Below are positions 23,107-61,516 of a DNA stretch of 64,000 bases, in pieces (position 1 is the first letter of the stretch; the number at the start of each line of letters is the position of its first letter). Position numbers and translations under genes: made by a program. The notes below the pieces were generated by a model, which worked only from the letters and a program-made list of their open reading frames with translations, did no database searches and had not been told where the DNA came from. Location of the stretch: the sequence record OL631482.1. The stretch is one strand, 5' to 3'. Origin of the DNA: Escherichia phage ECML-359.

Positions 23107-23131
23107 GTGTAACTCAGTATGGAATCATTAT
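23107..23131 (-). repeat. conserved 25-nt early-leader motif, copy 1 of 4 (plus-strand gtgtaactcagtatggaatcattat)
   Basis: The same 25-mer recurs near 40358, 57266 and 61493, each immediately downstream of an early promoter -10 on the minus strand. Confidence 0.6.
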
Positions 23132-23156
23132 GCACTGGGCAAATCCTGTTGTAAAC
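23126..23156 (-). promoter_or_regulatory. T4-type early promoter (-35 GTTTACA, -10 cATAAT)
   Basis: Minus strand reads ggggTTTACAacaggatttgcccagtgcATAATGattcc. Confidence 0.5.
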
Positions 23157-23173
23157 CCCTTTATGGAAAATAA

Positions 23174-23200
23174 AAAAGGGACTCCGAAGAGTCCCTGAAC
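23174..23200 (-). terminator. rho-independent terminator
   Basis: GGGACTC-ttcg-GAGTCCC hairpin followed by TTTTTTATTTT on the minus strand. Confidence 0.6.
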
Positions 23201-23362
23201 TTATGCTTTCGGCTTACCAAAGCAAGCTGCATCGGCGCGCAATACCGCACGAGCACGAGCCTGAAGTTTATCAGTCACCTGATTGATTCGCTTGTTGGAC
23301 GCACGCTTGTAACCAGCGCGTTTGGAGGAGCCATCAACAACTTTAACTTCTTTCTTAGCCAT
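23201..23362 (-). CDS. small basic protein (53 aa)
   Basis: Hand-found ORF MAKKEVKVVDGSSKRAGYKRASNKRINQVTDKLQARARAVLRADAACFGKPKA, immediately followed by a terminator. Confidence 0.4.
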   Translation of the reverse strand: MAKKEVKVVDGSSKRAGYKRASNKRINQVTDKLQARARAVLRADAACFGKPKA

Positions 23363-23759
23363 ATTAAATTCTCTTTAAAATAGAAGCAGGACTTATTGGC
23401 ATTGCCTGCGCAAGCCCTCGAAGGGAACATTAGGTTTCGGATATTTAACGACAGGATAACCATAAACCTCGTCATCATACCTTATAGCTCTTATCTGTTG
23501 CACACCGTTAGCTTAAAGGTTCCGGGTTCGATTTCTCGAGGATAAGATATATACTGATGGATATATAGGCCTTGAGGCGTACTCCCGATTGGCCATCACC
23601 TCGGGGTAGCATGCACTTGCCGCTATAAGAATAACATTCAAGAGGTACACCGTAAAACTGCCGGGGTCTTAAAACTATAATGATTCGCAAATCATTAATC
23701 AGACGGTTCGACGGCTCCTCGATTTTCTAGCCGCACTAAGGTAGCGAATCACCTACAGC

Positions 23760-24014
23760 TTACTTCAGGGTTACGACAAAATGGCGAACAGCTTTACGGG
23801 CAGCAGATGCCAGCGGCTTAGCAAATTTCAGTTCATCTTTTGCTTCGAGCACTGCGCGAAGGTCGGTTTGAACCGGGTTAAGATGTTTGAAATACTGCAG
23901 AATTTCCAGTGCTTCGGCTTCAACATCAATAGATGCGCCGTAGTTTTCGTGACCGTTATTCCATGCAGTGCGTTGCAGTTCGAGAGCGTGTTGTAATTGT
24001 TTGTTTAAAGACAT
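23760..24014 (-). CDS. rIII: rIII lysis-inhibition accessory protein
   Basis: Start placed at internal Met24 (84 aa; T4 rIII is 82 aa); sequence MSLNKQLQHALELQRTAWNNG... Confidence 0.7.
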   Translation of the reverse strand: MSLNKQLQHALELQRTAWNNGHENYGASIDVEAEALEILQYFKHLNPVQTDLRAVLEAKDELKFAKPLASAARKAVRHFVVTLK

Positions 24015-24185
24015 TTTAGAAGCCTCAATATGAGGTGAATATTTGGTGGACACGTTCTTCTGAATTTCACTTCCTTTCGGCAAGTCTCTCAGTTGTAGTC
24101 CACCGTTTAGGATTAGCTAACCCCATACACCAGCAAAGCTCTGTATGACATCAACCAATCCATATTATTATTTATAACGCTAATT

Positions 24186-24533
24186 TTACTTATAAAGACA
24201 AGGAACAGCTTTATAATGACAGGTCACAAATTTCTGCTTAACTTCTTTAGCCTGCTTAAGTCCCAGTGCAACCAGAGGATGTGGAACGTTTGCAATCTTG
24301 CCAACCGGAAGAGGAGTCAAATCACCTACTTCGCAGAATCCTTCAGGAACATCCGGACCAACCGAAAATACTTCACACATCTCCGGGATTTCACCCTGAT
24401 GGAGTTTTCCGATAACGATACCTGATGCCGTAGTTTCTTCATCACCAGCTTGCTTTGGCTCAGAAACCAAAATAATATATTCACCTACTGCTTTAATTGG
24501 TAATTCCATATTTAATCCATGTTGTTTGGTCAT
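24186..24533 (-). CDS. 31: gp31 co-chaperonin (GroES-like)
   Basis: Strong similarity to T4 gp31 (...[19 protein letters not shown]...[15 protein letters not shown]). Confidence 0.85.
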
Positions 24534-24564
24534 GTATTAATAATAACATGCATTGTTTGAAGCA

Positions 24565-24864
24565 TTAAAGGACTAGCAAAGTCTCGGTCTGCAGTCCATT
24601 CACGGAAATCAATTTATTGAAACAGAATGAACGCCATTCATTAAGCTTGGTATCAAATACCCGGATATAGCTAACTGGTTCTTTATTGACTTCTGGTCCA
24701 GGGGCCTGGATTTCTTTATACGGAAGCAGGTCCAGGTCGCGAGTACAAGTCATACGACGGATGCTACCATCTGCTTTTTCAAACAGAACTTCATGAAAGC
24801 CGACAGACAAGATAGTCTTGACTTTTTCGCGAAGGCGAATTGTTTCTTGTTCAGTTAAAATCAT
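24565..24864 (-). CDS. hypothetical protein (T4 31.1 position)
   Basis: 99-aa ORF. Confidence 0.5.
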   Translation of the reverse strand: MILTEQETIRLREKVKTILSVGFHEVLFEKADGSIRRMTCTRDLDLLPYKEIQAPGPEVNKEPVSYIRVFDTKLNEWRSFCFNKLISVNGLQTETLLVL

Positions 24865-24866
24865 AA

Positions 24867-25100
24867 TTATTCCAAAACAGTTTTAATAGTGGTTGCATTA
24901 CGCTCTTTTAGAGCACTCAGCAGGGATTTACATTTTTCAAAAACCGGGTCCGTTTTATACCGGATGCTTTCGTCAATCCATTCGGATTTATAGTAAGACT
25001 TCCAGCGAGAGAAGAAATACTTTTTGTATTCCACCGAAAAAGAGATTATACCCGTCCCCCGAGGACTAAGGCTGGTTATTTTAACCATACGAAATTTCAT
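24867..25100 (-). CDS. hypothetical protein (T4 31.2 position)
   Basis: 77-aa ORF. Confidence 0.5.
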   Translation of the reverse strand: MKFRMVKITSLSPRGTGIISFSVEYKKYFFSRWKSYYKSEWIDESIRYKTDPVFEKCKSLLSALKERNATTIKTVLE

Positions 25101-25681
25101 TATTCACCACAAAATTCGTTAATGTTTTCCCAGTTCAATTTGTCTAGACTACGCTTAGGCACATTGAACACCTCAATTCCCGCGTTCTTCAGGATATCAT
25201 CCCAACCAGGAATATTCTTATCATACGTTTCACAGTAAACCAATTTCTTGATTCCTGATTGAGAAATTGCCTTTGCACAGTCAGGACAAGGGGAAAGCGT
25301 CACATACATAGTAGCGCCTTCAATTGACGAACCCATCCTTGCTGCAAACAGAATTGCATTAAGCTCAGCATGGATTTCGTTGTTCTTTGACCAGGCAGAA
25401 TGGGCTTCGCGATGGGCTTTCGCCAATACAAAACGGTCAACATTACTGAATCTCACACATTCTGGCTTGTGACCGGGGACGAGAACGGGTTTAGGTTTAT
25501 TCAGTAACCAACCTTGCTCTTCCGCATGCTCGCAACAGTTGACCCCACCTGCAGGGGAACCATTATACCCTGTAGAAATAATGCGCCCATTCTTTTCAAT
25601 AACAGCTCCCACTTTCCAGGAGCAACATTTGGATTCTTGAGATACAAGGTATGCGATTTGCAGAACAGTAGTTGGTTTCAT
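25100..25681 (-). CDS. cd: dCMP deaminase
   Basis: 193 aa, same length as T4 Cd; zinc-binding motifs HAE and PCPDC. Confidence 0.9.
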   Translation of the reverse strand: MKPTTVLQIAYLVSQESKCCSWKVGAVIEKNGRIISTGYNGSPAGGVNCCEHAEEQGWLLNKPKPVLVPGHKPECVRFSNVDRFVLAKAHREAHSAWSKNNEIHAELNAILFAARMGSSIEGATMYVTLSPCPDCAKAISQSGIKKLVYCETYDKNIPGWDDILKNAGIEVFNVPKRSLDKLNWENINEFCGE

Positions 25682-26017
25682 TTACATCACCACGAGATAA
25701 TTGGTTTTAATAGTTTCAACACGATATAATTCATGTCGCAATTTAGTAATGCTCTTAACATGTGTTGTAATTATACTATCACCGTCGCTGAAGCGTTTTT
25801 TCTTATCGTCAAAAATCACCCCAAACATTCGCTCACCAATTTCTACAGGAGCTTCTGTGATAACAACCGCATCATAATTACTTGGGTGAATACTTTTAAA
25901 CAGAGCATCATTCGCAAGCGTTACTTTGATAAATGCAGTTGTTTCTGGGTCCAACTTACGATGGTCACCTAAATCATTTTTAAGTGATTCTTTGAAAATA
26001 TCCATTAAATTCATCAT
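25682..26017 (-). CDS. hypothetical protein (cd.1 position)
   Basis: 111-aa ORF. Confidence 0.5.
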   Translation of the reverse strand: MMNLMDIFKESLKNDLGDHRKLDPETTAFIKVTLANDALFKSIHPSNYDAVVITEAPVEIGERMFGVIFDDKKKRFSDGDSIITTHVKSITKLRHELYRVETIKTNYLVVM

Positions 26018-26259
26018 TGAATATACACTCGCTGCGCTTCAACCAGACCATCAGAACCCAATTTTAGTTGGGTCAACTGGTCACCACCTTTTAGAGTAAT
26101 TTTAGGATTAATGACAATCATAAAACTGCGTGCAGATTCCTGAATAACTTGCAAAGTCGCGGCAGGGAATCGCTGTGATACGCGGTTAATCATCTCTTGA
26201 GCAAATGCCTTCACTTTTTCGTGAAACTCTTCAACAGTAATTGGGGTTTCGCTAAGCAT
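26014..26259 (-). CDS. hypothetical protein (cd.2 position)
   Basis: 81-aa ORF with overlapping start and stop. Confidence 0.5.
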   Translation of the reverse strand: MLSETPITVEEFHEKVKAFAQEMINRVSQRFPAATLQVIQESARSFMIVINPKITLKGGDQLTQLKLGSDGLVEAQRVYIQ

Positions 26260-26801
26260 CAGATTGTCTCCTGTTTAACTTGTTTAACGATAGAAACTTT
26301 TGCGATATCGCCTTTGATAATATAGCAATCTTCTGCAGTACCACGGTTTAACAGACGCTCGGCTTCGCCTTCCGCATATTCTTTTGACACATGACGAGAG
26401 TTAATCTCAATCTTGCCATTTTTAACCACAAGCAATTTCCAAACTGATGCAAGTTTTACTGGCACAGGTTCAACTTCTGGCTTAACACCAACTTCCGCCT
26501 GGATGAAATAATCAAATTCATCTGACAATGGACCAGCGGAAACAAACATTGCTCCACGATGCCTATTCTGTGCGCCAGATATTTTTGCCAAATCCACAAA
26601 ATCATTTTCATCAATCAAACGAATCTCACAAACTTTTTTACCGCCGCTAACAGTATCAGGTAAAATCTTAACTTCAAACGGAGTCATACCGATGTATCCA
26701 GCAATTTGGTAATTAGCTGCCCAACCACCGGAGACAAATTGTTTTTTGGCATTTTCAGATACAAATTTGTAAAACTTACCTTCTTCAAAGAAATTACTCA
26801 T
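26259..26801 (-). CDS. hypothetical protein (cd.3 position)
   Basis: 180-aa ORF preceded by the RBS motif ACACATGAGGAAAACAAA. Confidence 0.55.
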   Translation of the reverse strand: MSNFFEEGKFYKFVSENAKKQFVSGGWAANYQIAGYIGMTPFEVKILPDTVSGGKKVCEIRLIDENDFVDLAKISGAQNRHRGAMFVSAGPLSDEFDYFIQAEVGVKPEVEPVPVKLASVWKLLVVKNGKIEINSRHVSKEYAEGEAERLLNRGTAEDCYIIKGDIAKVSIVKQVKQETI

Positions 26802-26861
26802 TTTGTTTTCCTCATGTGTCGATGAAATTCATTATACACCATCCGTGGTGAAAGTAAACAC

Positions 26862-27140
26862 TTAAATTGCTTCTGCAATTGCAGTTTGATTCTGGAAGTC
26901 AACCTTGCACGAAACGGTCAAAGTGGCTCCATCAATTTTAAACGGAACAATTGCGAATGCTGCACCAGACGTGAGTTTGACAGTGATTGCATCAACTGCA
27001 TCCGGGAACATGATTTCCAGAATAGCAGACAAACGACCGTGCACCTTTAGTTCAGTCGACACGTCGACGCTTTCGTATAGATAATCAGATACAATCTGAC
27101 TAAAAACTACTTTAACAATTTCAGAATACGTAGGAAACAT
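26862..27140 (-). CDS. hypothetical protein (cd.4 position)
   Basis: 92-aa ORF. Confidence 0.5.
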   Translation of the reverse strand: MFPTYSEIVKVVFSQIVSDYLYESVDVSTELKVHGRLSAILEIMFPDAVDAITVKLTSGAAFAIVPFKIDGATLTVSCKVDFQNQTAIAEAI

Positions 27141-27187
27141 TTCTTTTCTCGCTTAGTTATTGGGGTTATCCAAAGGACCTAGACCCA

Positions 27188-27213
27188 TTATAACATAAAA
27201 TTTTTAAAGCGTT
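27188..27213 (-). promoter_or_regulatory. middle-promoter-like element (MotA-like box AACGCTTTA, 12-nt spacer, TATAAT)
   Basis: Minus strand reads taACGCTTTAaaaattttatgtTATAATgggtctaggtcc; shares the post -10 sequence GGTCTAG with the other two middle promoters. Confidence 0.4.
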
Positions 27214-27427
27214 AATGGACGGTATGCACCTTGACATTAACGATGAATCGGTCAATGACTTCAGTCAGCGGAACGAATTCAACATAATATTCGCCCTTGT
27301 ATCGTTCGTTGATATCATTACGCAGTGCAGCCAGGTTGTTGATAAGAGCAGGAGACATATTCTGCCCTACCAGTTTCTGAAGCTCTTTATAAGCTTCTTC
27401 TTCAACTTCATGGTGTTTGTTATACAT
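27212..27427 (-). CDS. hypothetical protein (cd.5 position)
   Basis: Start placed at internal Met (MYNKHH...); overlaps the upstream stop by 8 nt. Confidence 0.45.
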   Translation of the reverse strand: MYNKHHEVEEEAYKELQKLVGQNMSPALINNLAALRNDINERYKGEYYVEFVPLTEVIDRFIVNVKVHTVH

Positions 27428-27616
27428 AATGTTCTTCCAAGAAGGCCAAGAGTTCTGGAGCGGATTTAAAGATACCGCCATCAACCTTGTCTTCATCTTT
27501 ATAGTCCATTACATCCAGGCCAATACGTCCATCGGTTAAAGGCCACACGCCGAAGAAAAAGCATTTACGTTTTTCAATTTCTTCGATTGTACGAAAAATC
27601 TTTTCGATATTATTCA

Positions 27617-27617
<1 letters not shown>
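27420..27617 (-). CDS. hypothetical protein
   Basis: 65-aa ORF. Confidence 0.45.
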
Positions 27618-28835
<1,218 letters not shown>

Positions 28836-28839
<4 letters not shown>

Positions 28840-29318
28840 ACACCAAGCTCCTTATAAAGTTCTTCGCGGCAGGTTTTAAGGATTTTACCAGTTTCATAAG
28901 CTGCACTTTCAGAAACATCACCAAGTGCAGCGGCAGATTGCATTTGACCATGGCGTTTAGCTGCATATTCAAAACTTTTTACTAGCTCACGAATACGTTC
29001 TTTTTCATTGTACTCTTCAATGAATTCAGGGTATTCCCAAACTGGGCGCATCATACGATACCACTGTTGGATGGTAATATAATTACTTCCATCCAGATTA
29101 ATAATTTGCGAAGGCTTAATAGCGCCCGGGGCATAAAAAGTTACCTGTCTTACTACATCAATACCGTCCACAATAGCCCAAGCAAAATCGAAAGTTGCCT
29201 TCTTTTCAATTGGTGTACTTGCACAGGACCCTAATTTTAAGAGCTTTTGTAATGCAGGGGATTTAACACCTGAAATGTATTCAGGATTAGCTACAAAAGA
29301 ATTGTCACGTAAAGTCAT
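28836..29318 (-). CDS. hypothetical protein
   Basis: Start moved to Met13, because the ORF-track ATG lies inside the -10 element of an early promoter. Confidence 0.45.
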
Positions 29319-29352
29319 AGTCATTTCCTCAAATTTTATAATCCGTAGGAGC

Positions 29353-29384
29353 ATTATACTCTGCTCCCATGAGTTTGTACACTA
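29353..29384 (-). promoter_or_regulatory. early promoter cassette (GTGTACA -35, TATAAT -10)
   Basis: Minus strand reads aagtaGTGTACAaactcatgggagcagagTATAATgc; near-identical copies at about 59880 and 60293. Confidence 0.5.
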
Positions 29385-29485
29385 CTTTCCAAAAAGACCT
29401 TGAACACATAAAGTGGCCGCAATTCCAAAACAAAAACAGAATGCACCAAATCTAACAATATCCCAACCAAGGCTACAGGTCTCTA

Positions 29486-29776
29486 TCATTTGCAACGTTC
29501 CTCTTTTAGTTCAGAACGATAATAACATAACATACCTTTTTGGTCACGTACATATCTTTTTACATCATTCATCCAAATCCTGAATTCTTGCGATGCTTCA
29601 AAAGGCATACCAACCCAGGCTTGGCCCTCAATTACCTTCACTTCCCATTGCTGTTTGTAATCAGCCAATGCAACAGGCCAATTAGGATGAACTTGGATTG
29701 TGGGCTCCACAACGGGCTTCTGGGCACATGAAACGAGTCCAATAGCCAAACATACTGCCATGATAGATTTCATCAT
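29486..29776 (-). CDS. pseT.2: o-spanin, outer-membrane lipoprotein (T4 pseT.2 type)
   Basis: Signal peptide with lipobox (MMKSIMAVCLAIGLVSC), 96 aa; ATGA overlap with the i-spanin gene. Confidence 0.7.
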   Translation of the reverse strand: MMKSIMAVCLAIGLVSCAQKPVVEPTIQVHPNWPVALADYKQQWEVKVIEGQAWVGMPFEASQEFRIWMNDVKRYVRDQKGMLCYYRSELKEERCK

Positions 29777-30126
29777 TTGGTGAGCTCCTGGAAGTCCTGG
29801 GCGAACTTATCAAAAGACTGATTAATCTGTTTTTCAACTAATTTAGGCTTCGCTGCCACAACCTTAGTACGTTTTGCATCTGCACGAAGTTTATCATTTT
29901 CCTTCTGTAAGTGTTCAACATATTCCTGGCGCTGTTGGTCAAGGAGATTAATTTGATTAACCTGGTCTTTTATTGATTGCAGATTTTTCGCATTATCTTC
30001 TGCGACTTTGGTGACTTCCGCCACCGCTGTCTTGAGATTATCCACTTTTGCTTTTAGATAGAAACCACTACCAGCAGTTACTACCAGGGCGAGCATAAGC
30101 CCTGCAGTGAGATTACTTATTTGCAT
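29773..30126 (-). CDS. pseT.3: i-spanin, N-terminal TM helix plus periplasmic coiled coil (T4 pseT.3 type)
   Basis: N-terminal hydrophobic helix LTAGLMLALVVTAGSGFYL followed by a charged coiled coil, 117 aa. Confidence 0.7.
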   Translation of the reverse strand: MQISNLTAGLMLALVVTAGSGFYLKAKVDNLKTAVAEVTKVAEDNAKNLQSIKDQVNQINLLDQQRQEYVEHLQKENDKLRADAKRTKVVAAKPKLVEKQINQSFDKFAQDFQELTK

Positions 30127-30620: not shown

Positions 30621-30633
30621 AATATTTTCCTCA

Positions 30634-30867
30634 TTAGTAGCGGTTATAACCCCGGGGACCAAAAGAGTTGGCACCCAGGCGCTCATCTTTCTTTTTGGCT
30701 CTTGCTCTAAACCCAGAATCACCTGTTTGAGCTTTCAGTTCTTTTAACAATTTGGCCTTCAGGTCAGTAATGAAACCAATCCGGCGGTCTCCCTTGTAGA
30801 CATAGATTCCATCATTTCTGTCACCATATGCCTGTGTAACTCTTTCATTTGTAATTAAGTTTAACAT
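30634..30867 (-). CDS. truncated paralog of the Alc-like N-terminus (77 aa)
   Basis: Residues 1-45 (MLNLITNERVTQAYGDRNDGIYVYKGDRRIGFITDLKAKL) are about 55% identical to the downstream Alc-like N-terminus; the underlying DNA is also a direct repeat. Own GAGGA RBS. Confidence 0.45.
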   Translation of the reverse strand: MLNLITNERVTQAYGDRNDGIYVYKGDRRIGFITDLKAKLLKELKAQTGDSGFRARAKKKDERLGANSFGPRGYNRY

Positions 30868-30897
30868 GTTTTAGTCCTCATCAGTAGTTGATGGAAC

Positions 30898-30927
30898 CAT
30901 TATGTATAGAAAGGAGGGGCTTGTACA
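30898..30927 (-). promoter_or_regulatory. early promoter (GTGTACA -35, cATAAT -10)
   Basis: Minus strand reads aaaaaaggggtGTACAagcccctcctttctatacATAATGgttcc. Confidence 0.45.
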
Positions 30928-30938
30928 CCCCTTTTTTA

Positions 30939-32482: not shown

Positions 32483-32485
32483 GGG

Positions 32486-39645: not shown

Positions 39646-39712
39646 TTTATTTTCCTCACTCATTAGTTGATAGGTCTATAATAACATAATCATAGACATT
39701 ATACACTACTTT

Positions 39713-39979
39713 TTAAATTTTGTCGAGCCATTTACCAAGTTTGGTCATTTCTTTGGTAGCTTTTTCCAGACTTCTGAACTTGACTAACAAAGGATAAGTA
39801 TCTACACCCATAACTAAAGTGGTTACAAGACTATGCTCGCCTACAAGCCATAGAGAATACGTTTGAACATCAAGTCCGTAATTTCGGTCTTTATGGACAC
39901 GTACACCCATCACTTCAAACTGTTCGCTGGCTTTTTCTACTGCATCCAGGAAATCATCTTTAGTCATATTAAATTCCAA
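39713..39979 (-). CDS. hypothetical protein
   Basis: 88-aa ORF. Confidence 0.5.
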   Translation of the reverse strand: MEFNMTKDDFLDAVEKASEQFEVMGVRVHKDRNYGLDVQTYSLWLVGEHSLVTTLVMGVDTYPLLVKFRSLEKATKEMTKLGKWLDKI

Positions 39980-40334
39980 AGGTAGCTTTAATCAAGGCAA
40001 TGACTTCAGCAGCATTTTTGTGATTAACCTGCACATGAATGGTTTGCGTGTCAACAACAGGAGCATCTTCATCAACTTCCAGGAAGTGGCGGAATTCCCA
40101 TTCAGCGAGTTCAAAGTACTCATCAGCATCATCCATACTATCCAAGATGGTACCATCTTTCATTTCAACTTTTTCAACAAAATAATCGCCATCAATAAAG
40201 CACATATCCAGGACTTTGAAGGAACTGCCATGCTGTTCCATCAGCTTGACCATGCGCGAATTATCATCAGGACTACCAGCGATGAAATGTTTTTTAGCAG
40301 CAGGGTCTAATACGTAAGTTTTACCAGTTTCCAT
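39969..40334 (-). CDS. hypothetical acidic protein
   Basis: 121-aa ORF, first gene downstream of an early promoter and leader motif. Confidence 0.5.
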   Translation of the reverse strand: METGKTYVLDPAAKKHFIAGSPDDNSRMVKLMEQHGSSFKVLDMCFIDGDYFVEKVEMKDGTILDSMDDADEYFELAEWEFRHFLEVDEDAPVVDTQTIHVQVNHKNAAEVIALIKATFGI

Positions 40335-40357
40335 TTTGATTTCCTCGGTTGTTTATC

Positions 40358-40382
40358 GTGTAACTCAGTATGGAATCATTAT
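40358..40382 (-). repeat. conserved 25-nt early-leader motif, copy 2 of 4
   Basis: gtgtaactcagtatggaatcattat, as at 23107. Confidence 0.6.
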
Positions 40383-40408
40383 GCCTTAGCTCAAAGGACT
40401 TGTACACT
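40377..40408 (-). promoter_or_regulatory. early promoter (GTGTACA -35, cATAAT -10)
   Basis: Minus strand reads aaaaagtaGTGTACAagtcctttgagctaaggcATAATGattcc. Confidence 0.5.
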
Positions 40409-40421: not shown

Positions 40422-40444
40422 AAAAAAGGGACCCGAAGGTCCCC
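40422..40444 (-). terminator. rho-independent terminator downstream of gene 32
   Basis: GGGACC-cgaa-GGTCCC hairpin followed by a T-run. Confidence 0.65.
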
Positions 40445-40449
40445 TTATA

Positions 40450-54264: not shown

Positions 54265-54536
54265 AATCCGGAGGTATACATCATAAGATAACGGTGTATA
54301 TCTTCGAATCCTTCGTTAAATTGTTCAATGATTTGTTCAATTTCATCTTCAGATAAACTTTTAAACAATTTGTTAAACGATACATTGTTTAACTCATTCC
54401 CATTCTCATTTCTCAATCCCAACTCATTCAAAAACGCGATAAACACATCGCGCTTCATCGTAATATCTTCCCGGTCGGTTTTAATCAAAATTGAAGTTAT
54501 AGTAACAATTTCAGAAACGATTTCAAATTTAGTCAT
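54261..54536 (-). CDS. asiA: AsiA anti-sigma70 factor
   Basis: 91 aa, similar to T4 AsiA (...EIVTITSILIK..REDI...FIAFLNE...FNEGFE...RYL.MYT). Confidence 0.85.
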   Translation of the reverse strand: MTKFEIVSEIVTITSILIKTDREDITMKRDVFIAFLNELGLRNENGNELNNVSFNKLFKSLSEDEIEQIIEQFNEGFEDIHRYLMMYTSGF

Positions 54537-54585
54537 TTTAATTTACTCAAGTATTCAATAAGACATTCAATTATTCAGTAAGGGT

Positions 54586-54616
54586 ATTATACTATTATTC
54601 CTCTGGGTTGTACACA
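54586..54616 (-). promoter_or_regulatory. early promoter upstream of asiA (GTGTACA, 17 nt, TATAAT)
   Basis: Minus strand reads aatcatGTGTACAacccagaggaataatagTATAATaccc. Confidence 0.5.
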
Positions 54617-54759
54617 TGATTTTCCATCTGTACAACATATTCCTGATACATCTGTTCAACTGGTTCCTGGAACTTAAAATCAGCTCCAAGGAATTCCTCA
54701 AAGCAAGCCTGCTCGTGCGTACGTTGACCGGTGATGGTGTTCTCTAAGTTATGACTCAT
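54595..54759 (-). CDS. hypothetical small acidic protein (54 aa)
   Basis: Hand-found ORF MSHNLENTITGQRTHEQACFEEF... with an AGGGAA RBS; its 3' end overlaps the asiA promoter. Confidence 0.3.
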   Translation of the reverse strand: MSHNLENTITGQRTHEQACFEEFLGADFKFQEPVEQMYQEYVVQMENHVYNPEE

Positions 54760-54868
54760 AATGATTCCCTTTGTGCTTCTGCTTACGTTTGGACTGCATT
54801 TTGGTTTTCTTCTTGTCCTTATGGACAGACGCCTTATTGAAATCGTGCTTAGCTACCAGATTGTTCAT
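54749..54868 (-). CDS. hypothetical small lysine-rich protein (39 aa)
   Basis: Hand-found ORF MNNLVAKHDFNKASVHKDKKKTKMQSKRKQKHKGNHYES with an AAGGAAA RBS. Confidence 0.3.
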   Translation of the reverse strand: MNNLVAKHDFNKASVHKDKKKTKMQSKRKQKHKGNHYES

Positions 54869-55127
54869 GCAATTTCCTTAATTGATATTCAAGAGAACTG
54901 ATAATTTCTTTATTAGTTGCAATATACATATCACGTAGGAAGGGTTTCAGACCTTCTCTAACTCTATACGTGTTATCACTAATATCCTTTATATATTCAT
55001 GGTCTAAAGCATCCCAAGCCGGCTGGTTAACATAAGTTCCCCAGTTGTCTTCCATCATAGTGTTCAGACGTTTGATATGATTGATATGGGTTTCGATTGC
55101 ATCAATCTGGAGTTGTTTAAGGTTCAT
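54849..55127 (-). CDS. hypothetical protein (92 aa; T4 arn region)
   Basis: Length equals T4 Arn (92 aa) and the position fits the arn region, but the sequence was not recognised. Confidence 0.45.
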   Translation of the reverse strand: MNLKQLQIDAIETHINHIKRLNTMMEDNWGTYVNQPAWDALDHEYIKDISDNTYRVREGLKPFLRDMYIATNKEIISSLEYQLRKLHEQSGS

Positions 55128-55738
55128 TAATAAAGGTCCTCTGAATAAAGTTCTTTTTCACTACCGCCACGTTCAATACGCACTTGATTTGCATAAGTCG
55201 CAATAATCATTGCTTCTTCGCGGGTCCAGTAATTGCTGTACTGGTCAATGAATCCTTGATTATCACCACAAACATGGTCTGACACAAGTTTATCACTTAC
55301 TTGGTCAAGCACTTCTGCCATATCCTTGGAATAATGTCTGGCACCAGGAATAACCAGAGTCCCACCATCTTTTAACTTAAATCGGTTGGCGGCACATACA
55401 ATCCGTCGCTGATATTTTTCATTGTTATTCCAATGCGCAATCTGCCAACAGATTTCTGGGACTTCTTCCAGAATATCTTTTTCATCGCATGTGTATCCAT
55501 GTGCTTTAAATTTTTCAGCGAGGCTTTTGGGGGTTTCACGCGATTCTGGTGCTGGTAACATTTCTAAACGAGTGATAAACGGATTCATTTCACAATTACC
55601 TTCTTCATTATATTCGGTGTAATCACCGTATGCATGTAATTTAGCAGCGAGACTTTCAGGAGTCTCCCGAGAAAGAGCTTTATCTAACAAGGCCATACGG
55701 TCTTTAAAGGATAATGCTTTACCTTTTAATGGATTCAT
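55127..55738 (-). CDS. hypothetical protein with internal tandem repeat
   Basis: Two ~25-aa repeats ([23 protein letters not shown] and [23 protein letters not shown]) precede a C-terminal domain. Confidence 0.5.
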
Positions 55739-56082
55739 TTGAAAATCACCTTATAACCGTTATCTTTAGCGAATTCTTGAATTTTAGCGGCGGTTTCAAT
55801 TAAATCACCTTTATAATAGGATGATAATTTAATATCAACTGTTTTGCCTTCGCCATACGAAGTTATATTCACTTTTTCCGTAAAAATAAGCTCAAGAAAT
55901 CGCAATAGCTGCATACCAAATTCAAGAGTAACATTATCAATCTGGAGGTTAAGTTGATAAGTTTTCTTAATACCATTCACCAGCGCACAGCGCTCATCCC
56001 AAGCGTTACGTTGTTCTTCAATCAATTTAAGGGAATGACCTTCGCCATCCCAATTTAGTTCCATAGGAATCATTTGAACCAA
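55735..56082 (-). CDS. hypothetical protein
   Basis: 115-aa ORF. Confidence 0.5.
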
Positions 56083-56402
56083 CCTTTAACACGTTGCCAC
56101 AGACTTTTCTGTTGAGCTTTATTAACACCAATTGAGCGAATAACTGGTTGTGATTCCAGGTATTCTTTATAGTCAGCTTTATAGACTTCATATGCTGCTG
56201 GAACAAAGGCACCAATCGCCGCCATGAAGTTCTTGCGAGCACCAAATGGAGCTACTGCATCATCCTGGCGATGGATAAGATACTGACCAGCTTTGACCTT
56301 GACAATAGTCCCAAGGTAAGCGCCATGATACCAAACATCCCAACCCTCTTGAGTAGGTTCTACGCAAGCACGCAATTCATTAACAATATTCAGCTTATTC
56401 AT
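56070..56402 (-). CDS. hypothetical protein
   Basis: 110-aa ORF. Confidence 0.5.
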   Translation of the reverse strand: MNKLNIVNELRACVEPTQEGWDVWYHGAYLGTIVKVKAGQYLIHRQDDAVAPFGARKNFMAAIGAFVPAAYEVYKADYKEYLESQPVIRSIGVNKAQQKSLWQRVKGWFK

Positions 56403-56409
56403 AATTTCC

Positions 56410-57018
56410 TCACTTTAAGATGTTAATAACATGTTGAATGTTTTCAGTTGACATATGATTGTCAATGTAGGTATTCAATCCACCTACTTTAACGCTAAAT
56501 CCCACGTCTGTAAACTGTTTTACTATCTTTTGTTCAGTATTATACGCATGCACACGAATCTGACCATCACGACGTACATCAATCTGTTTTAATGTCTTGA
56601 TACGCTTGAACTTCACAATCAGATTGCTGCGGTCTTCTGAAATGCTCTTAAAGTCAATACCAATAGACAATAATTGCTCTTTGATATATTCTGCAGTCGC
56701 TTCCATTTCATCAGTCACACCGCGTTTTGTTCTTGTCTTCTTCACTTCCAGAAGGTCAGGATTATTTTCATTCGCCCACAGTTCAGCTGCATCCAGAATA
56801 AGGTCAACACCTTTTTCTGTAACCATCAAACCATCACCAGAAGCTTCAACATAGTTGTTATTCAACAATGTCTGCACGCTATCAATTGACGTGTTCTGCT
56901 GGCCTAAAACAACCTCAGGACGCACGAAGTTGTTTTTATATACAAACACCAGAGCATTAACATCAGTCTCATGTAGAGCGTTCTGGGAGCATTTAACGAT
57001 ATAATTTAGCTTGTTCAT
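56410..57018 (-). CDS. motA: MotA middle-transcription activator
   Basis: 202 aa; C-terminus resembles T4 MotA (...KQFTDVGFSVKV...STENIQHVINILK). Confidence 0.8.
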   Translation of the reverse strand: MNKLNYIVKCSQNALHETDVNALVFVYKNNFVRPEVVLGQQNTSIDSVQTLLNNNYVEASGDGLMVTEKGVDLILDAAELWANENNPDLLEVKKTRTKRGVTDEMEATAEYIKEQLLSIGIDFKSISEDRSNLIVKFKRIKTLKQIDVRRDGQIRVHAYNTEQKIVKQFTDVGFSVKVGGLNTYIDNHMSTENIQHVINILK

Positions 57019-57020
57019 AA

Positions 57021-57236
57021 TTATCCCTTAATAGATTTCATGTAATTTGATGCATATGATTGTACCACAGTACGTTTCATATGGGAAGTAGAAACAATAA
57101 CATCAATCGCTTGTTTACGTTCTTCTTTAGAATTCGCCAGTTTGAACATGTCAAAGTAATAATAGCAAGCTTCTTTATTAGATTTGAATTTAGCGTTAAT
57201 GTATTCTTGACCTTCATTCTGTTGTGCAGTAAACAT
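57021..57236 (-). CDS. hypothetical protein
   Basis: Start placed at Met5, preceded by the RBS TGGAGAATAAA; the ORF-track start is TTG. Confidence 0.5.
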   Translation of the reverse strand: MFTAQQNEGQEYINAKFKSNKEACYYYFDMFKLANSKEERKQAIDVIVSTSHMKRTVVQSYASNYMKSIKG

Positions 57237-57265
57237 TTTATTCTCCAAAGTTTTTGTGATTCATT

Positions 57266-57290
57266 GTGTAACTCAGTATGGAATCATTAT
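57266..57290 (-). repeat. conserved 25-nt early-leader motif, copy 3 of 4
   Basis: gtgtaactcagtatggaatcattat. Confidence 0.6.
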
Positions 57291-57316
57291 GCATCAGGTC
57301 AAGGGTCATGTACACT
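57285..57316 (-). promoter_or_regulatory. early promoter (GTGTACA -35, cATAAT -10)
   Basis: Minus strand reads aaaaaagtaGTGTACAtgacccttgacctgatgCATAATgattcc. Confidence 0.5.
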
Positions 57317-57338
57317 ACTTTTTTAAATATTTTAAAAT

Positions 57339-57362
57339 AAAAAAGGACCCCGAAGGGTCCTA
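57339..57362 (-). terminator. rho-independent terminator
   Basis: GGACCC-ttcg-GGGTCC hairpin followed by a T-run. Confidence 0.6.
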
Positions 57363-57458
57363 GTCTTTATCTATCTTATTGCCAATAAACATACCAACAA
57401 TCACACCTGCGATTGCCGCAAAAATACAAAGCAATGCAAACTCAACTCCAAAACTCAT
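57360..57458 (-). CDS. small hydrophobic membrane peptide (32 aa), translationally coupled to gene 52
   Basis: Hand-found ORF MSFGVEFALLCIFAAIAGVIVGMFIGNKIDKD with a GGAGG RBS; ATGA overlap with the gene 52 stop. Confidence 0.4.
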   Translation of the reverse strand: MSFGVEFALLCIFAAIAGVIVGMFIGNKIDKD

Positions 57459-58834
57459 AGAGCCTCCAAATCATTAAGGTATTCAGTTTTAACATCAGTT
57501 GTCTTCCAGTACTCATGCTCAGCTTTCTTAGCCTTTGCTTCGTCTGCAAGCTTCTTGGCTTCATCAGAGGTCATATGGTAGATGTTCATCGCCACTAACT
57601 TCTCTGCATAATCGCCATATATTTCACTCGCCTGGAGTTCCTCAATCAACTTCTTACGAGGTTTCCCCTGGATAACAACCTTACCATCAATCACTTCTTT
57701 AATAAAGAAGACTTTTGCCCGGGCCAGTTTAAACGCGGCTTCAGTTTCTTTAATCTTACTGTCAATTCGCACTTGAACATAAGTCTTACGGACATCCACG
57801 AAATCGCGAATCAGGTCAAGCGTGTTGGTGTATTCAGCCAGTTTGCCTTTATGATTAAGCACTGTTAAGTTCTGGGAGAGCTTCTCAATCAGACCAAAGT
57901 CTTTCATGATTTTCTCATGATTTTCTTCTTCGGTGCCATCCAACTTGTATTCTTTACGGAATTTAATCTTAAACCCAAAACCATGTTCGCCGCAGTTATC
58001 TTTCCAGGTGATAAAACCTTTCTCTTCCAGCGGGTCCAGGATTTTACTTGTGTACTTTTCCAGGTTCCATTGGACCGGGATTTCAGTAATTTCCATTTGG
58101 GTCCTGGACGTCATTTTGTATGTGCCATGAAGCTCATACTTACCAGGCTCTTCCAGCTCAACAACTTTACCACGGAATTCTGGATATTTTACTTTCGGAG
58201 CAACCGGTTCACGACCTTCCACGATAGCTTTAACAGCTTCCTTAACGTCCTGGAACGAATGAGGAAGGATATCAGTAGCAAAGCCAACAGCAATCCCAGA
58301 AGTGGCGTTAAGTAATACAGTAGGAATAACAGGAAGATAAAAAGCAGGAGGCTTATGTTCTTCATCAGGATGGACCGGAGCATATTCTGTATCCTTAAAC
58401 AAGTTGTAAAAGTTCTTTGAAACCCTTGCGAATACATAACGAGCCGATGATGCTTCTGGCACCATTCTGGAACCAAAGTTACCTTGCCCATCAAACATAG
58501 GATATTCATTTTTATATGTTGCAACCAGACCAGAAGTTGCTTCTTCCGCTGATGCTTCACCATGGTGATAACCATAATCAGCTACGCCACCTGCGATGGA
58601 TGCAACCTTATGGAATTTATTCTTATCACCACGTGCCAGGTCTAATGCTCTCGCCATAACAAATCTGTGAACTGGTTTAAAACCATCAATCATGTTTGGG
58701 ATGGCACGACCTTCCACAGTGTAGATAGCATATGACAATGCTTCCACATCAATAATGTCTTTTAGACTGCGTGGGTTAAGGGTCCCCATAGAATCACTGA
58801 ACTGTTTGGACATCATACTTAAAACGTCAGACAT
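57455..58834 (-). CDS. 52: DNA topoisomerase II medium subunit
   Basis: 459 aa with gyrase-A-like breakage-reunion motifs (...AIPNMIDGFKPVHRFVM...). Confidence 0.9.
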   Translation of the reverse strand: MSDVLSMMSKQFSDSMGTLNPRSLKDIIDVEALSYAIYTVEGRAIPNMIDGFKPVHRFVMARALDLARGDKNKFHKVASIAGGVADYGYHHGEASAEEATSGLVATYKNEYPMFDGQGNFGSRMVPEASSARYVFARVSKNFYNLFKDTEYAPVHPDEEHKPPAFYLPVIPTVLLNATSGIAVGFATDILPHSFQDVKEAVKAIVEGREPVAPKVKYPEFRGKVVELEEPGKYELHGTYKMTSRTQMEITEIPVQWNLEKYTSKILDPLEEKGFITWKDNCGEHGFGFKIKFRKEYKLDGTEEENHEKIMKDFGLIEKLSQNLTVLNHKGKLAEYTNTLDLIRDFVDVRKTYVQVRIDSKIKETEAAFKLARAKVFFIKEVIDGKVVIQGKPRKKLIEELQASEIYGDYAEKLVAMNIYHMTSDEAKKLADEAKAKKAEHEYWKTTDVKTEYLNDLEAL

Positions 58835-58842
58835 ATATCACC

Positions 58843-58983
58843 TTACCAGATTAACGAATGTACTGCCATTATAGCATCAGAAATAAAAAGCACAACCTGC
58901 ACTAACGCAAACACAACTCCGTAATACAGCGCCACCAATAAGGTAGCAAGGACTAACGAGTAGCCCAAGATTTTCTTAATCAT
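58843..58983 (-). CDS. small membrane protein (46 aa)
   Basis: Hand-found ORF MIKKILGYSLVLATLLVALYYGVVFALVQVVLFISDAIMAVHSLIW; overlaps the upstream ORF stop by 8 nt. Confidence 0.4.
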   Translation of the reverse strand: MIKKILGYSLVLATLLVALYYGVVFALVQVVLFISDAIMAVHSLIW

Positions 58984-59131
58984 TTTTATCCAATAATTTA
59001 AATAGTGATAAAACTGCTAATACACCTTGAGCTGTTGACTGCAGAAATACTGAAGTTTCACCAGTTATTAATGTTCCAACAAATAAAAATGACCAGCAGA
59101 AAAAAGCTACACCATGAACAAATTTATTCAT
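58976..59131 (-). CDS. small membrane protein (51 aa); possible ac homologue by size and position
   Basis: Hand-found ORF MNKFVHGVAFFCWSFLFVGTLITGETSVFLQSTAQGVLAVLSLFKLLDKND with a GAGGA RBS. Confidence 0.4.
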   Translation of the reverse strand: MNKFVHGVAFFCWSFLFVGTLITGETSVFLQSTAQGVLAVLSLFKLLDKND

Positions 59132-59211
59132 ATTTTCCTCAAGGACGTCCGAAGACGCCGGTTAATTTCAGATTATGACGATGCCATTGCATCACATGTT
59201 CGTTATGGAAA

Positions 59212-59385
59212 TTACTCATATATACCACACATTTTGCATAAGCGTTCAAAACAGATATACCCACCACTAAAGCACATAGTAACAGCAACTTTATCATTAA
59301 ATGGAGCACCAAAGGCTATAAAGGCTCCTGTAATAACAAATAGGGCTAAAACAAATAGGTAACCCATTGTAAAGAAATGTCTCAT
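59212..59385 (-). CDS. small membrane protein (57 aa)
   Basis: Start placed at the internal Met directly after the ndd stop; hydrophobic core [19 protein letters not shown]. Confidence 0.4.
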
Positions 59386-59386
59386 A

Positions 59387-59836
59387 TTAATAGCTCTGCA
59401 GAATGAATTTAAAGTTATCAGCAAGCATGCGATTCATTTCTGAAAGGGTCTGGCAATCAGAACTATGTGAGCGAGTGAACGCCATCGCAATTTGACCTTT
59501 ACCATAACCAGTTGTCAGAGGTTTCATTTTAGAAACTGGGACAAACAGGACTTCATAGATAACCCCATTGTTCGCCATTGTGCGAGACAGTTGAGAACGC
59601 TGTTTGCGGATGTGACTTAATACAGTGTCAAACCCTTGTTGTGAACGTTGGTTACCAACATAAAAACGTGCAGCAACAATACGTGATTCGCCTTCACCTT
59701 TAACCACGAAATAAAAACCTGGTTGAGTGATAGCTTCTTTAGTTGGGCGACCGGCAACATAATTACCATTATGGATATAAGCAACAGTGGTAGCACCAGC
59801 ATTCAGTACGTCACGACGGGTCATGTAAGTAGACAT
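59387..59836 (-). CDS. ndd: Ndd nucleoid-disruption protein
   Basis: 149 aa, similar to T4 Ndd (...LNAGAT...PGFYF...[28 protein letters not shown]...[36 protein letters not shown]). Confidence 0.8.
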
Positions 59837-59879
59837 ATTAATTTCCTCAGTAAGTTAAAGTTTTGTGCTCCAGTGGGGT

Positions 59880-59911
59880 CATTATACTCTGACCCCAAGA
59901 GTTTGTACACT
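59880..59911 (-). promoter_or_regulatory. early promoter cassette upstream of ndd
   Basis: Minus strand reads aaaatagtGTACAaactcttggggtcagagTATAATgac. Confidence 0.5.
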
Positions 59912-60254
59912 ATTTTTGTAGTTGTTCTAAAATAAATCCACTGGTGTAAAGGCTTGCATTATACAGACGGTCAAGAGACAACGAATCCAACCCATAAGCT
60001 TCACGAATTGCATTCACAACACTTTCATAACTTGTATAATAAACATCGCGATAATCGCGGTCCATAGTCATGCGGAACTTAATAAATTTATAGAAACCAG
60101 TTTCAGGGTCCTGATAGAATGCAAATTCAGCAGACATCAAATTTTTAAGGTTAACAGCTTTTGTGCCACCTGAATAACTTAAATCAAATGCTTCTGATAT
60201 GCTAATTTGTTTAAAGAACATAATGTTGCGATTACCAAAAAATACTTTAGACAT
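59910..60254 (-). CDS. hypothetical protein
   Basis: 114-aa ORF. Confidence 0.5.
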   Translation of the reverse strand: MSKVFFGNRNIMFFKQISISEAFDLSYSGGTKAVNLKNLMSAEFAFYQDPETGFYKFIKFRMTMDRDYRDVYYTSYESVVNAIREAYGLDSLSLDRLYNASLYTSGFILEQLQK

Positions 60255-60292
60255 AATATTTTCCTCAATTAAATTTTATTATCCACGGGAAC

Positions 60293-60322
60293 ATTATACT
60301 CTGCTCCCAAGAGTTTGTACAC
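60293..60322 (-). promoter_or_regulatory. early promoter cassette (near-identical copy of the one at 29353)
   Basis: Minus strand reads gaatagtGTACAaactcttgggagcagagTATAATgt. Confidence 0.5.
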
Positions 60323-60567
60323 TATTCTACATCAACTGCGTCATCCCACAAGTCAACTTCTTCTGATGATTCCATCAGTTCATCAACTGTGAAGCACTCA
60401 GTATTATTTTCAATTGCAAAACGTTTCTGATAAAAAGGATAATCCAAACAGTTTTCAGTGCGCACAGGACGCTCGCTGTTATCCATTAAAGGTGAAATGC
60501 GAATCAGTTGTTGACCATTACCCAGGACAAATTTTTCACCAACTGCAATGTCTTTAAAAAGTTTCAT
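60322..60567 (-). CDS. hypothetical acidic protein
   Basis: 81-aa ORF. Confidence 0.5.
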   Translation of the reverse strand: MKLFKDIAVGEKFVLGNGQQLIRISPLMDNSERPVRTENCLDYPFYQKRFAIENNTECFTVDELMESSEEVDLWDDAVDVE

Positions 60568-60770
60568 TGCTTAGCTCCATTCCAAATTACATCAACAACA
60601 GACTTCAAACCATTATCCTGGATTTGTGTGAACACTTCAGCAGCAATCCAGAGCTGGAAACCAATCATTGCAATGGCACCAATGAAAATCAGGATAATCA
60701 TCGCCACAATAAACTTGAACATAAAATCAAAGCGACGATTGGATTTCTGAAATTGTGAATTGTAATTCAT
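60564..60770 (-). CDS. hypothetical membrane protein
   Basis: Internal Met start; single TM segment FIVAMIILIFIGAIAMIGFQLWIAA. Confidence 0.45.
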   Translation of the reverse strand: MNYNSQFQKSNRRFDFMFKFIVAMIILIFIGAIAMIGFQLWIAAEVFTQIQDNGLKSVVDVIWNGAKQ

Positions 60771-60780
60771 AATATTATCC

Positions 60781-60897
60781 TCAAAAGAAATAGTTAAAGT
60801 AAACACGCACATGGTCAATCATAAAAACAATTGGGAAAATGCTCAGGACAACAAACAGTACAAACATGTTCCAAATGGCTTTAAGTAACTTTTTCAT
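60781..60897 (-). CDS. small hydrophobic peptide (38 aa)
   Basis: Hand-found ORF MKKLLKAIWNMFVLFVVLSIFPIVFMIDHVRVYFNYFF with a GGAG RBS, downstream of an early promoter. Confidence 0.35.
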   Translation of the reverse strand: MKKLLKAIWNMFVLFVVLSIFPIVFMIDHVRVYFNYFF

Positions 60898-60923
60898 AAT
60901 CATCTCCAGTAGTTGATAGGTTC

Positions 60924-60952
60924 ATTATACTACAACCACTGGAGATGTACAC
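60924..60952 (-). promoter_or_regulatory. early promoter (GTGTACA, TATAAT)
   Basis: Minus strand reads aaaagagtGTACAtctccagtggttgtagTATAATgaa. Confidence 0.45.
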
Positions 60953-61042
60953 TCTTTTATGCAAGTTTCATTAATAATAAACTAAAACAAACGCAAATTA
61001 CTGGGATACACAGCATCCAGATAAGGCACCAGGTTTTGCTGC

Positions 61043-61309
61043 TCAAAATATCACCTCTTTGATTTCAATCAATCCTCTGTACAATGCAGTGCGAAGGTCA
61101 TAAAGAATATCTATACCATCAACATTATCCAGCTTGCCATCAATAAGCTTTTTTAAATCTTCCTTTGATGCAATCAATGGACGAAGAAATTTACAATCAG
61201 AAAGAGACAATTCTGTGGTAACATCATCACCATCACCTGATGCATCATACATAGCAGCAACAACCATACCTGTAACTTTGTGTTTGGCGTAGTATAATTT
61301 AATATCCAT
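61043..61309 (-). CDS. hypothetical protein
   Basis: Start placed at the internal Met (MDIKLYY...) with a GAGGAAAATAAA RBS. Confidence 0.45.
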   Translation of the reverse strand: MDIKLYYAKHKVTGMVVAAMYDASGDGDDVTTELSLSDCKFLRPLIASKEDLKKLIDGKLDNVDGIDILYDLRTALYRGLIEIKEVIF

Positions 61310-61319
61310 TTTATTTTCC

Positions 61320-61475
61320 TCATGCATAACGATTGTATGTATTTTTGCGACATGCGTAAAATTGACGCTCAGTAACTGCAAAACTTTTTCCACGCTGATG
61401 CATTAATTTAAAAAATTCAGTAATATCGCCATTAACTTCAAGGTATAAAGTCATTGCATATTGAGCAGGTTTCAT
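61320..61475 (-). CDS. hypothetical small protein (51 aa)
   Basis: Internal ATG with the RBS CTGGAGAATAAAATG; the ORF-track start lies inside the promoter. Confidence 0.4.
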   Translation of the reverse strand: MKPAQYAMTLYLEVNGDITEFFKLMHQRGKSFAVTERQFYACRKNTYNRYA

Positions 61476-61492
61476 TTTATTCTCCAGTATTT

Positions 61493-61516
61493 GGTAACTC
61501 AGTATGGAATCATTAT
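61493..61516 (-). repeat. conserved early-leader motif, copy 4 of 4
   Basis: ggtaactcagtatggaatcattat (one 5' mismatch). Confidence 0.55.

Follow-up and report, generated by a model that had tools for sequence, protein, structure and literature searches.

A repeated block at four early promoters

A 64,000-nucleotide stretch of DNA from Escherichia phage ECML-359 (sequence record OL631482.1; the whole stretch is hereafter the window) contains four near-identical copies of a 25-mer, each placed at an early promoter. The window is 93 to 97% identical to VR7/VR26/TH57-type coliphages of the genus Gaprivervirus (VR7/SP18-like T4-type phages). About 12 early-type promoters lie on its minus strand, and the repeated block is present at four of them. 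Read on the plus strand, the 25-mer GTGTAACTCAGTATGGAATCATTAT is exact at three sites, and the fourth copy has two mismatches at its far end (TGGTAAC...; Table 1). A 17-mer inner core, ATTCCATACTGAGTTAC, is exact at all four. No match to the 25-mer was found in 100 dinucleotide-preserving shuffles, which rules out a chance or low-complexity origin. All four copies precede early genes on the minus strand (gene 30.8, frd.2, the motA operon, and an ORFan). Because the products immediately downstream are mutually unrelated (gp30.8, Frd.2, a 71–amino acid ORFan before motA, and a 51–amino acid ORFan), we regard the repeat as regulatory, and a remnant of duplicated genes is ruled out on the same ground. 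Recent segmental duplication is also ruled out, given that wholly different spacers stand beside an identical block. The four copies described in a preliminary description of this DNA are confirmed, as are its positions 23107, 40358, and 57266; the fourth copy starts at 61492 rather than 61493. The likeness reaches further than that description stated, taking in the terminator hairpin, A-tract, and −35 element as well.

On the minus strand, every copy spans −11 to +14 of an early σ70-type promoter, and its first base is the second of a (C/T)ATAAT hexamer located 17 nucleotides (nt) past TGTACA or TTTACA. Each site runs, in order, through an A-tract, (T/G)TGTACA, a variable spacer of 17 nt, (C/T)ATAAT, GATTCC, and ATACTGAGTTAC(AC). 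The block is followed 3′ by a CA/A-rich stretch, a GGAG-type Shine-Dalgarno sequence (SD), AAUAAA, and ATG, with the ATG and its SD at 30 to 43 nt from the predicted start. The A-tract 5′ of the −35 element is AAAAAGTAG at three sites and TAAAGGGG at the promoter ending at 23127, and the spacer differs in every one of the four copies. An independent consensus scan returned the same four promoters and placed intrinsic terminators just 5′ of the first three; at these three sites, a GC hairpin with a UUCG loop and a T-run stands immediately upstream. T4-like early promoters are known for a GTGTAC −35 element, an A-tract, and C at −3 to −1 (PMC1524935). All four window sites have T4-type early-promoter hexamers about 17 nt apart, and window sites also have an A-rich UP-like tract near −40 to −45 and a C-rich −3 to −1. 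Transcription would start at the A seven bases after the −10 element, as predicted from the usual spacing; our literature search found no 5′-end, RNA sequencing, or transcript maps for the VR7/Gaprivervirus clade. The minus-strand alignment supports the earlier placement of the repeat, from inside the −10 element into the 5′ leader of the gene that opens an early unit.

Constraint on the block

We compared 54 distinct instances of the cassette from five genomes and from metagenome contigs, grouped by promoter, and calculated mean within-group diversity. The most invariant segment was the −10 hexamer (0.003), followed by the −35 region and positions +1 to +12 (0.011 each) and the discriminator (0.022). 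Diversity was far higher in the spacer (0.09) and at +13 to +28 (0.17). Polymorphic group-sites numbered 3 of 108 at +1 to +12 versus 28 of 153 in the spacer (P = 6.8 × 10−5).

A more distant comparison, and the most stringent one, is provided by an orthologous cassette (MKLQR...) in Morganella phage MP1 and phage VR20. The open reading frames (ORFs) of this pair are identical at only 161 of 320 nucleotides, yet AAAAAGTAGTGTACA, ATAAT, and a continuous CCCATACTGAGTTAACAA (18 of 18) are unchanged. Because the ORF has diverged by about 50% while CCCATACTGAGTTAACAA is retained in full, we conclude from these alignments that purifying selection acts on the block at a level comparable to that for the core promoter elements. 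Judged by the same alignments, recent duplication cannot explain its invariance. The suggestion that conservation beyond the hexamers marks a shared cis element is therefore supported: positions +1 to +12 are as invariant as the −35 and −10 elements, the spacer is not, and the core is unchanged in MP1.

Start-region classes in VR7 and other phages

The complete VR7 genome contains 11 copies of the block (with at most two mismatches). Each of them is on the early strand and immediately follows a −10 element. They precede srd, ORF045c, nrdC.8, ORF098c, ORF145c, ORF146c, ORF147c, ORF190c (an ORFan between genes 23 and 24), 30.8, ORF277c (before motA), and ORF287c. By plain count, 8 of the 11 stand before non-T4 'VR7ORF' genes. 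The approximately 30 early promoters of VR7 sort into a few start-region classes: class A, ATACTGAGTTAC, at 11 promoters, or about one third; class B, ATCAACTACTG(G/A).., at about 10, internal-protein loci included; and class C, ACTGGAG.., at 2. Among VR7 start regions, 92 of 595 promoter pairs share at least 10 of 12 positions. The corresponding count in T4 was 0 of 78 pairs sharing at least 8 of 12 positions at +1 to +12, a figure that rests on only 13 T4 promoters caught by a regular expression. With that sample, a stereotyped start as a general T-even property is ruled out.

Class B is a sister block. It occupies the same place as class A, from +1 onward, at early promoters of these genomes, and it is linked with inverted repeats around the −10 element at internal-protein loci. 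Its leader, ATCAACTACTGGAG(AATAAAATG), is found in 714 phage records, T4, T2, and Klebsiella T4-likes among them. Class B is old and widespread and runs straight into the SD, whereas class A is confined to Gaprivervirus, MP1, and one transferred cassette and is followed by a further 18 to 31 nt of leader.

A motif search across related T4-like genomes, as proposed in the preliminary description, recovered the block in Gaprivervirus. BLAST located it in 36 records of the clade, at 9 to 14 places in each, and at lower identity in MP1. The core, CCATACTGAGTTA, stands at three consecutive annotated promoters of MP1 (genus Gualtarvirus), which differ in spacer and discriminator. IMG/VR and metagenomes were scanned with 16-mer and 13-mer-in-context queries, and no sequences other than Gaprivervirus genomes and contigs, MP1, and the Dhakavirus IME341 had the block in promoter context. 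The remaining matches were in unrelated contigs, lacked promoter context, and are attributed to chance, which rules out a wide distribution. We found no published promoter analysis covering this block for VR7, Gaprivervirus, or MP1; the MP1 paper reports only 12 MEME-predicted promoters. Although we found no prior description of this particular start block, the types of promoter and cassette to which it belongs are already known.

Module exchange and recombination junctions

The block can be exchanged as a unit. The promoter that follows gene 32 is nearly identical between the window (40378) and VR7 (145757) from the terminator to the discriminator, and again from the leader tail into frd.2. 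Between these segments, the window carries ACTGAGTTACAC and VR7 carries CAACTGCT instead, so that class B stands in for class A. Identity to VR7 at this promoter falls from 97.8% upstream of the block to 82.8% downstream. At the 57286 promoter, identity rises across the block from 85 to 96%, and at 61512 the window has a 181-nt insertion relative to VR7 (the leader tail and the 51–amino acid ORF) between the block and the next SD. A single promoter is found with three different downstream ORFs: one in the window, one in VR7, VR20, and VR25, and one in VR26. VR26 also fuses the promoter at VR7 65099 to the leader and gene at VR7 64730, with deletion of ORF146c, and further chimeras occur in metagenome contigs (L071, L076, and L069/L072). 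The chimera junctions lie at or beside the block, which marks a frequent recombination junction. IME341 (a JS98-like Dhakavirus) has one complete cassette in its frd hyperplastic region; this whole cassette was transferred into that phage.

Inverted repeats also bracket the −10 element at some promoters. Stems of at least 6 base pairs (bp) were found at 27% of VR7 promoters versus 8% of mismatched spacer/start pairs, and the VR7 hairpin subset includes apparent compensatory pairs (TCAGTATGGGA/TCCCATACTGA). Among the window copies, only the 61512 promoter has such a repeat (9 bp). A hairpin across the −10 element was rejected as the cause of conservation, because it is present at one of the four window copies and in a minority of class A promoters. 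The preliminary reading as a whole stands in part: its placement of the repeat and its shared cis element hold, and it missed the cassette, the sister block, and the junctions.

A proposed start-site module of mobile early-promoter cassettes

The explanation that we favor, with some reservation, is that the 25-mer is the class A start-site and initial-transcribed module of PeSL-like mobile early-promoter cassettes. The full cassette consists of an intrinsic terminator (where present), a UP-like A-tract, (G)TGTACA, a free spacer of 17 nt, (C/T)ATAAT, a discriminator rich in C, A(+1)TACTGAGTTAC, an unstructured CA/A-rich leader, GGAG, AAUAAA, and AUG. Its invariant core, CCATACTGAGTTA (−2 to +11), would be the start-site and initial-transcribed module, acting in cis as the downstream part of an extended σ70 early promoter. 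The RNA polymerase footprint extends from −50 to +20 (PMC12464699). Inside this footprint, the block may fix the start at the A seven bases past the −10 element, set initiation and escape behavior, and give all transcripts of the class a common single-stranded 5′ end. Initial transcribed sequences are known to work as independent units that strongly affect escape and output (PMC5961368), and T4 early promoters have extra consensus regions that are unexplained (PMC2988021). The alignments show that the block is a discrete and strongly constrained module at −2 to +12 of early promoters. It is also portable, being combined with varied spacers and genes and exchangeable for class B ATCAACTACTG. 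Because its copies are identical, it could serve as a short homology patch at which phage recombination swaps, inserts, and deletes ORF cassettes.

The closest parallel is the PeSL (promoter-early stem-loop) cassettes of phages RB49 and phi1, which are repeated intergenic composites of an AT-rich tract, a σ70-type early promoter, a GC stem-loop, an SD, and an ATG (Arbiol et al. 2010; PMC2839356). PeSLs are enriched beside ORFans in hyperplastic regions, close relatives differ at these cassettes, and their crossovers were mapped between the −10 element and the ATG; T-even elements are treated in the same paper as analogues of PeSLs and not as homologues (PMC2839356). PeSL-like elements at the internal-protein loci were noted by Repoila et al. 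1994, as cited in PMC2839356. The window cassettes are likewise repeated intergenic composites of AT-rich tract, promoter, SD, and ATG, with about 100 bp conserved (4 sites; 47 to 54 instances). They have terminator hairpins upstream, GGGG..CCCC hairpins over the −35 element (for example, at window 30899), and −10 inverted repeats, so the PeSL stem-loop is present here, although it is not universal for class A. ORFan neighbors are common too (the 8 of 11 VR7 copies before non-T4 genes), and junctions of insertion, deletion, and replacement fall within the cassettes (the three alternative ORFs, the fusions, the 181-nt insertion, and the block swap). Differences are also evident. The genus is another one, and so is the sequence, with a GTGTACA −35 element and a specific invariant start block unreported for RB49 and phi1 (compared by published description). 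Two interchangeable start blocks exist here, and in most class A copies the stem-loop is not within the promoter but stands upstream as a terminator of its own.

T4 early promoters, which are extended UP/−35/TGn/−10 'uber' promoters (Hinton 2010, PMC2988021; Nolan 2006, PMC1524935), share with the window sites their strand and neighborhoods (30.8, frd.2, and the motA region), a GT(T/G)TAC −35 element, an A-tract at about −42, 17-nt spacing, a C-rich −3 to −1, and extra consensus beyond the hexamers. In contrast, T4 start regions are not stereotyped, and the window promoters lack the TGn extended −10 and often have CATAAT as the −10 element. By these comparisons, the element belongs to the T4-type early promoters and behaves like a PeSL cassette. 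A further parallel is the strong early promoter N25 of phage T5, where output depends on the first 10 to 20 transcribed bases (PMC12464699, PMC5961368). Set beside N25 and the σ70-dependent pause elements of lambda PR′, class A has a −10-like hexamer and a pyrimidine-G (YG) step in the initial transcribed region. Its sister, class B, has no −10-like hexamer, and no Q-like antiterminator is known here, although no search was directed at one.

Several points weigh against interpreting the block as a start-site module. Its +1 position is predicted only from spacing. At T+5/G+6, class A includes a step of a type reported to favor initiation pausing (PMC5961368), and because of this YG step we do not claim that the sequence is optimized for escape. 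The interchangeability of classes A and B at one promoter means either that both have the same role or that the exact sequence is less important than its invariance would imply. Stereotypy is not required of strong early promoters, as the T4 pairs indicate (0 of 78, from the 13 promoters caught), and gene conversion among copies could add to the invariance.

Alternative explanations

The functional unit might instead lie in the RNA, as the first 12 to 23 nt of the mRNA (AUACUGAGUUA[A/C]CAAAUAAAAC), whose single-stranded 5′ end would be bound by a ribosomal protein, an RNase, or a phage factor with consequences for translation, stability, or processing. The most invariant part of the block (−1 to +11) is almost wholly transcribed, the untranscribed discriminator tolerates variants (GATTCC, GTTCCC, TATCCC, and GATTTC), and the unstructured, CA/A-rich leader tail is of the kind that S1-dependent initiation would call for. 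SDs 3′ of the block (GGAGAAUAAAAUG) resemble the RegB/S1 targets reportedly described by Durand et al. 2006. We nevertheless consider this unlikely. A structured or riboswitch-like leader is ruled out, because an Rfam search of the leader returned no match, folding gave z-scores of −0.35 to +1.29, and no consensus pairs or conserved structure were found. Pairing with ribosomal RNA (rRNA) as a translational enhancer was also rejected: complementarity to 16S rRNA is 6 nt, which 436 of 500 shuffles equaled or bettered, and a 7-nt match to 5S rRNA (5 of 500) fails over nine tests. Nor is the block a RegB/S1 cleavage site (GGAG/GGA and an A-rich tract), because ATACTGAGTTAC has no GGA or GGAG and the motif occurs only in the downstream SDs. 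Class B, a different 5′ sequence, substitutes at the same gene after gene 32, and the spacing between block and SD ranges over 18 to 31 nt, a variability not usual in translational elements. The original proposal of a processing site or a regulator-binding site finds no direct support: the leader is unstructured, there is no Rfam match, no GGAG, and no 16S complementarity, and inspection revealed no notable palindrome.

It is improbable, in our judgment, that the block is an operator bound by a phage or host factor, such as the one responsible for early-promoter shut-off, or a pause site at which CATACT (−1 to +5) re-engages σ70 and causes a promoter-proximal pause that serves regulation. The block is as invariant as the −35 and −10 elements, also across genera, and the shut-off of T4 early promoters is unexplained by ModA or AsiA (PMC2988021). 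CATACT matches TATAAT at four of six positions, including A2 and T6, the promoter scan scores TTGACC, 16 nt, CATACT as promoter-like (57302 to 57275), and the YG step stands at +5/+6. Conversely, ACTnAGT is the only dyad symmetry in the block, and class B takes the place of class A at an orthologous promoter despite lacking a −10-like hexamer. No candidate for a protein that binds the block was identified. Class A is on only about one third of VR7 early promoters, so it cannot alone explain a global shut-off. A similarly long shot is the broader idea that a trans-acting factor, or a state of RNA polymerase, that governs early promoters recognizes the start blocks (class A CCATACTGAGTTA, perhaps also B). 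Candidates may be the ModA/AsiA-independent switch-off at about 3 min post infection and a σ70-dependent checkpoint at the CATACT/YG positions; if this idea were true, conservation would reflect regulation and not promoter strength. Least plausible of all is a functionless block kept identical by recent cassette spread and short-patch gene conversion. Recombination and module replacement at or beside the block are clear, and T4-type phages recombine efficiently on short homology (PMC2839356). However, paralogous copies have wholly different spacers beside an identical block with sharp shared boundaries, the block is identical at 18 of 18 positions where the MP1 and VR20 ORFs have diverged by about 50%, and within-ortholog diversity is about eightfold below that of the adjacent spacer. 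A neutral repeat is already disfavored on these grounds.

Significance of the start block

The repeat is a real, mostly familiar kind of phage regulatory module. What sets it apart is that about one third of the early promoters in one T4-like genus have in common, besides the hexamers, an identical block covering the start site and initial transcribed region. Across genera, this block is as constant as the −35 and −10 elements, and it can be exchanged as a unit. Its main value is as a natural experimental system for the function of initial transcribed sequences and for cassette shuffling. The same promoter occurs with a class A or a class B start, and the same block occurs with a dozen spacers. 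With this matched set, one could ask how very strong phage promoters are tuned by their initial transcribed sequences, and whether such sequences contribute to the unexplained early shut-off. If the block is a start-site module of mobile cassettes, as we favor, then the PeSL idea of regulatory cassettes as gene-shuffling linkers would extend from RB49/phi1 to the VR7/SP18 clade, along with distinct junctions and a single transfer between genera. For annotation, the block is a reliable marker of the starts of early transcription units in these genomes.

Features of the four sites and related observations

Table 1. Positions of the class A blocks and accompanying features in the window. aa, amino acids; UTR, untranslated region.
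Feature	Positions	Strand	Details
Class A block, copy 1	23107–23131	−	−11 to +14, ATAAT GATTCC ATACTGAGTTACAC; predicted start A 23120
Early promoter 1	23127–23155	−	TTTACA, 17 nt, CATAAT
Intrinsic terminator	23177–23196	−	UUCG-loop hairpin and T-run; ends upstream unit
5′ UTR remainder and gene 30.8	22717–23106	−	UTR remainder AATAAAACACTGGAGAATAAA (23086–23106); 122 aa, PF06019
Class A block, copy 2	40358–40382	−	Predicted start 40371
Early promoter 2	40378–40406	−	Just after gene 32; TGTACA, 17 nt, CATAAT
Intrinsic terminator	40425–40446	−	After gene 32
Leader tail with SD and frd.2	39969–40357	−	121 aa, PF03197
Class A block, copy 3	57266–57290	−	Predicted start 57279
Early promoter 3	57286–57314	−	After gene 52; TGTACA, 17 nt, CATAAT
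Intrinsic terminator	57344–57361	−	After gene 52
Leader tail, ORFan, and motA	56410–57265	−	71-aa ORFan 57021–57236; motA 56410–57018 (PF09114/PF09158)
Class A block, copy 4	61492–61516	−	Tail CCA, not CAC; predicted start 61505
Early promoter 4	61512–61540	−	TGTACA, 17 nt, TATAAT; without upstream terminator
Inverted repeat, 9 bp	61526–61534 and 61499–61507		Brackets −10 of promoter 4; spacer arm TCAGTATGG (61526–61534) is the reverse complement of CCATACTGA (61499–61507)
Leader tail and ORFan	61320–61491	−	51-aa ORFan; segment missing in VR7, between block and next gene's SD

The 51–amino acid ORF directly 3′ of the fourth class A block (61320–61475, minus strand) has no PHROG or Pfam match; VR26 has another ORF in its place, and VR7, VR20, and VR25 yet another. 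At the third site, the promoter-like TTGACC, 16 nt, CATACT (57275–57302, minus strand) overlaps the early promoter, taking its −35 element from part of the spacer and its −10 element from the start of the class A block. The same overlap is present at the VR7 65617-type promoter and may be a tandem promoter or chance. The −35 element TGTACA is palindromic, and in combination with the A/T-rich tract upstream it creates divergent promoter-like sites (TGTACA, 18 nt, TAAAAT) at 57309–57338 and 59904–59933 on the plus strand. These are aimed into the upstream terminator and are probably a by-product of composition.

Class B ATCAACTACTG occurs in the window at 30882–30892 and 60907–60917 on the minus strand, with −10 elements ending at 30899 and 60924, and in a weaker form at 39661–39671. 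A third promoter subfamily (−10 elements ending at 29353, 59881, and 60293, minus strand) has a near-identical spacer, AACTC(T/A)TGGG(A/G)(G/T)CAGAG, which holds an inverted repeat, ACTCT..AGAGT. At the 59881 promoter, a 7-bp stem (TGGGGTC/GACCCCA) brackets the −10 element, giving a PeSL-type stem-loop between or over the boxes.

Between genes 23 and 24 of VR7 (103433; L003), a class A promoter drives the small opposite-strand ORF190c, a moron-like early cassette within the late structural module. A family of ORFs of about 80 to 90 amino acids beginning MKLQR(E/H)SIK... accompanies the class A cassette in Gualtarvirus, Gaprivervirus, and Dhakavirus (MP1, L080 1420–2450; VR20, L091; IME341, L085); the MP1 version has a 9–amino acid insertion and about 50% nucleotide identity to the others. 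Last, consecutive ORFs at 28–945 and 946–2229 on the plus strand of the window lie where VR7 annotates the tandem capsid vertex genes 24(1) and 24(2), and from gene order they would be tandem copies of the vertex gene.

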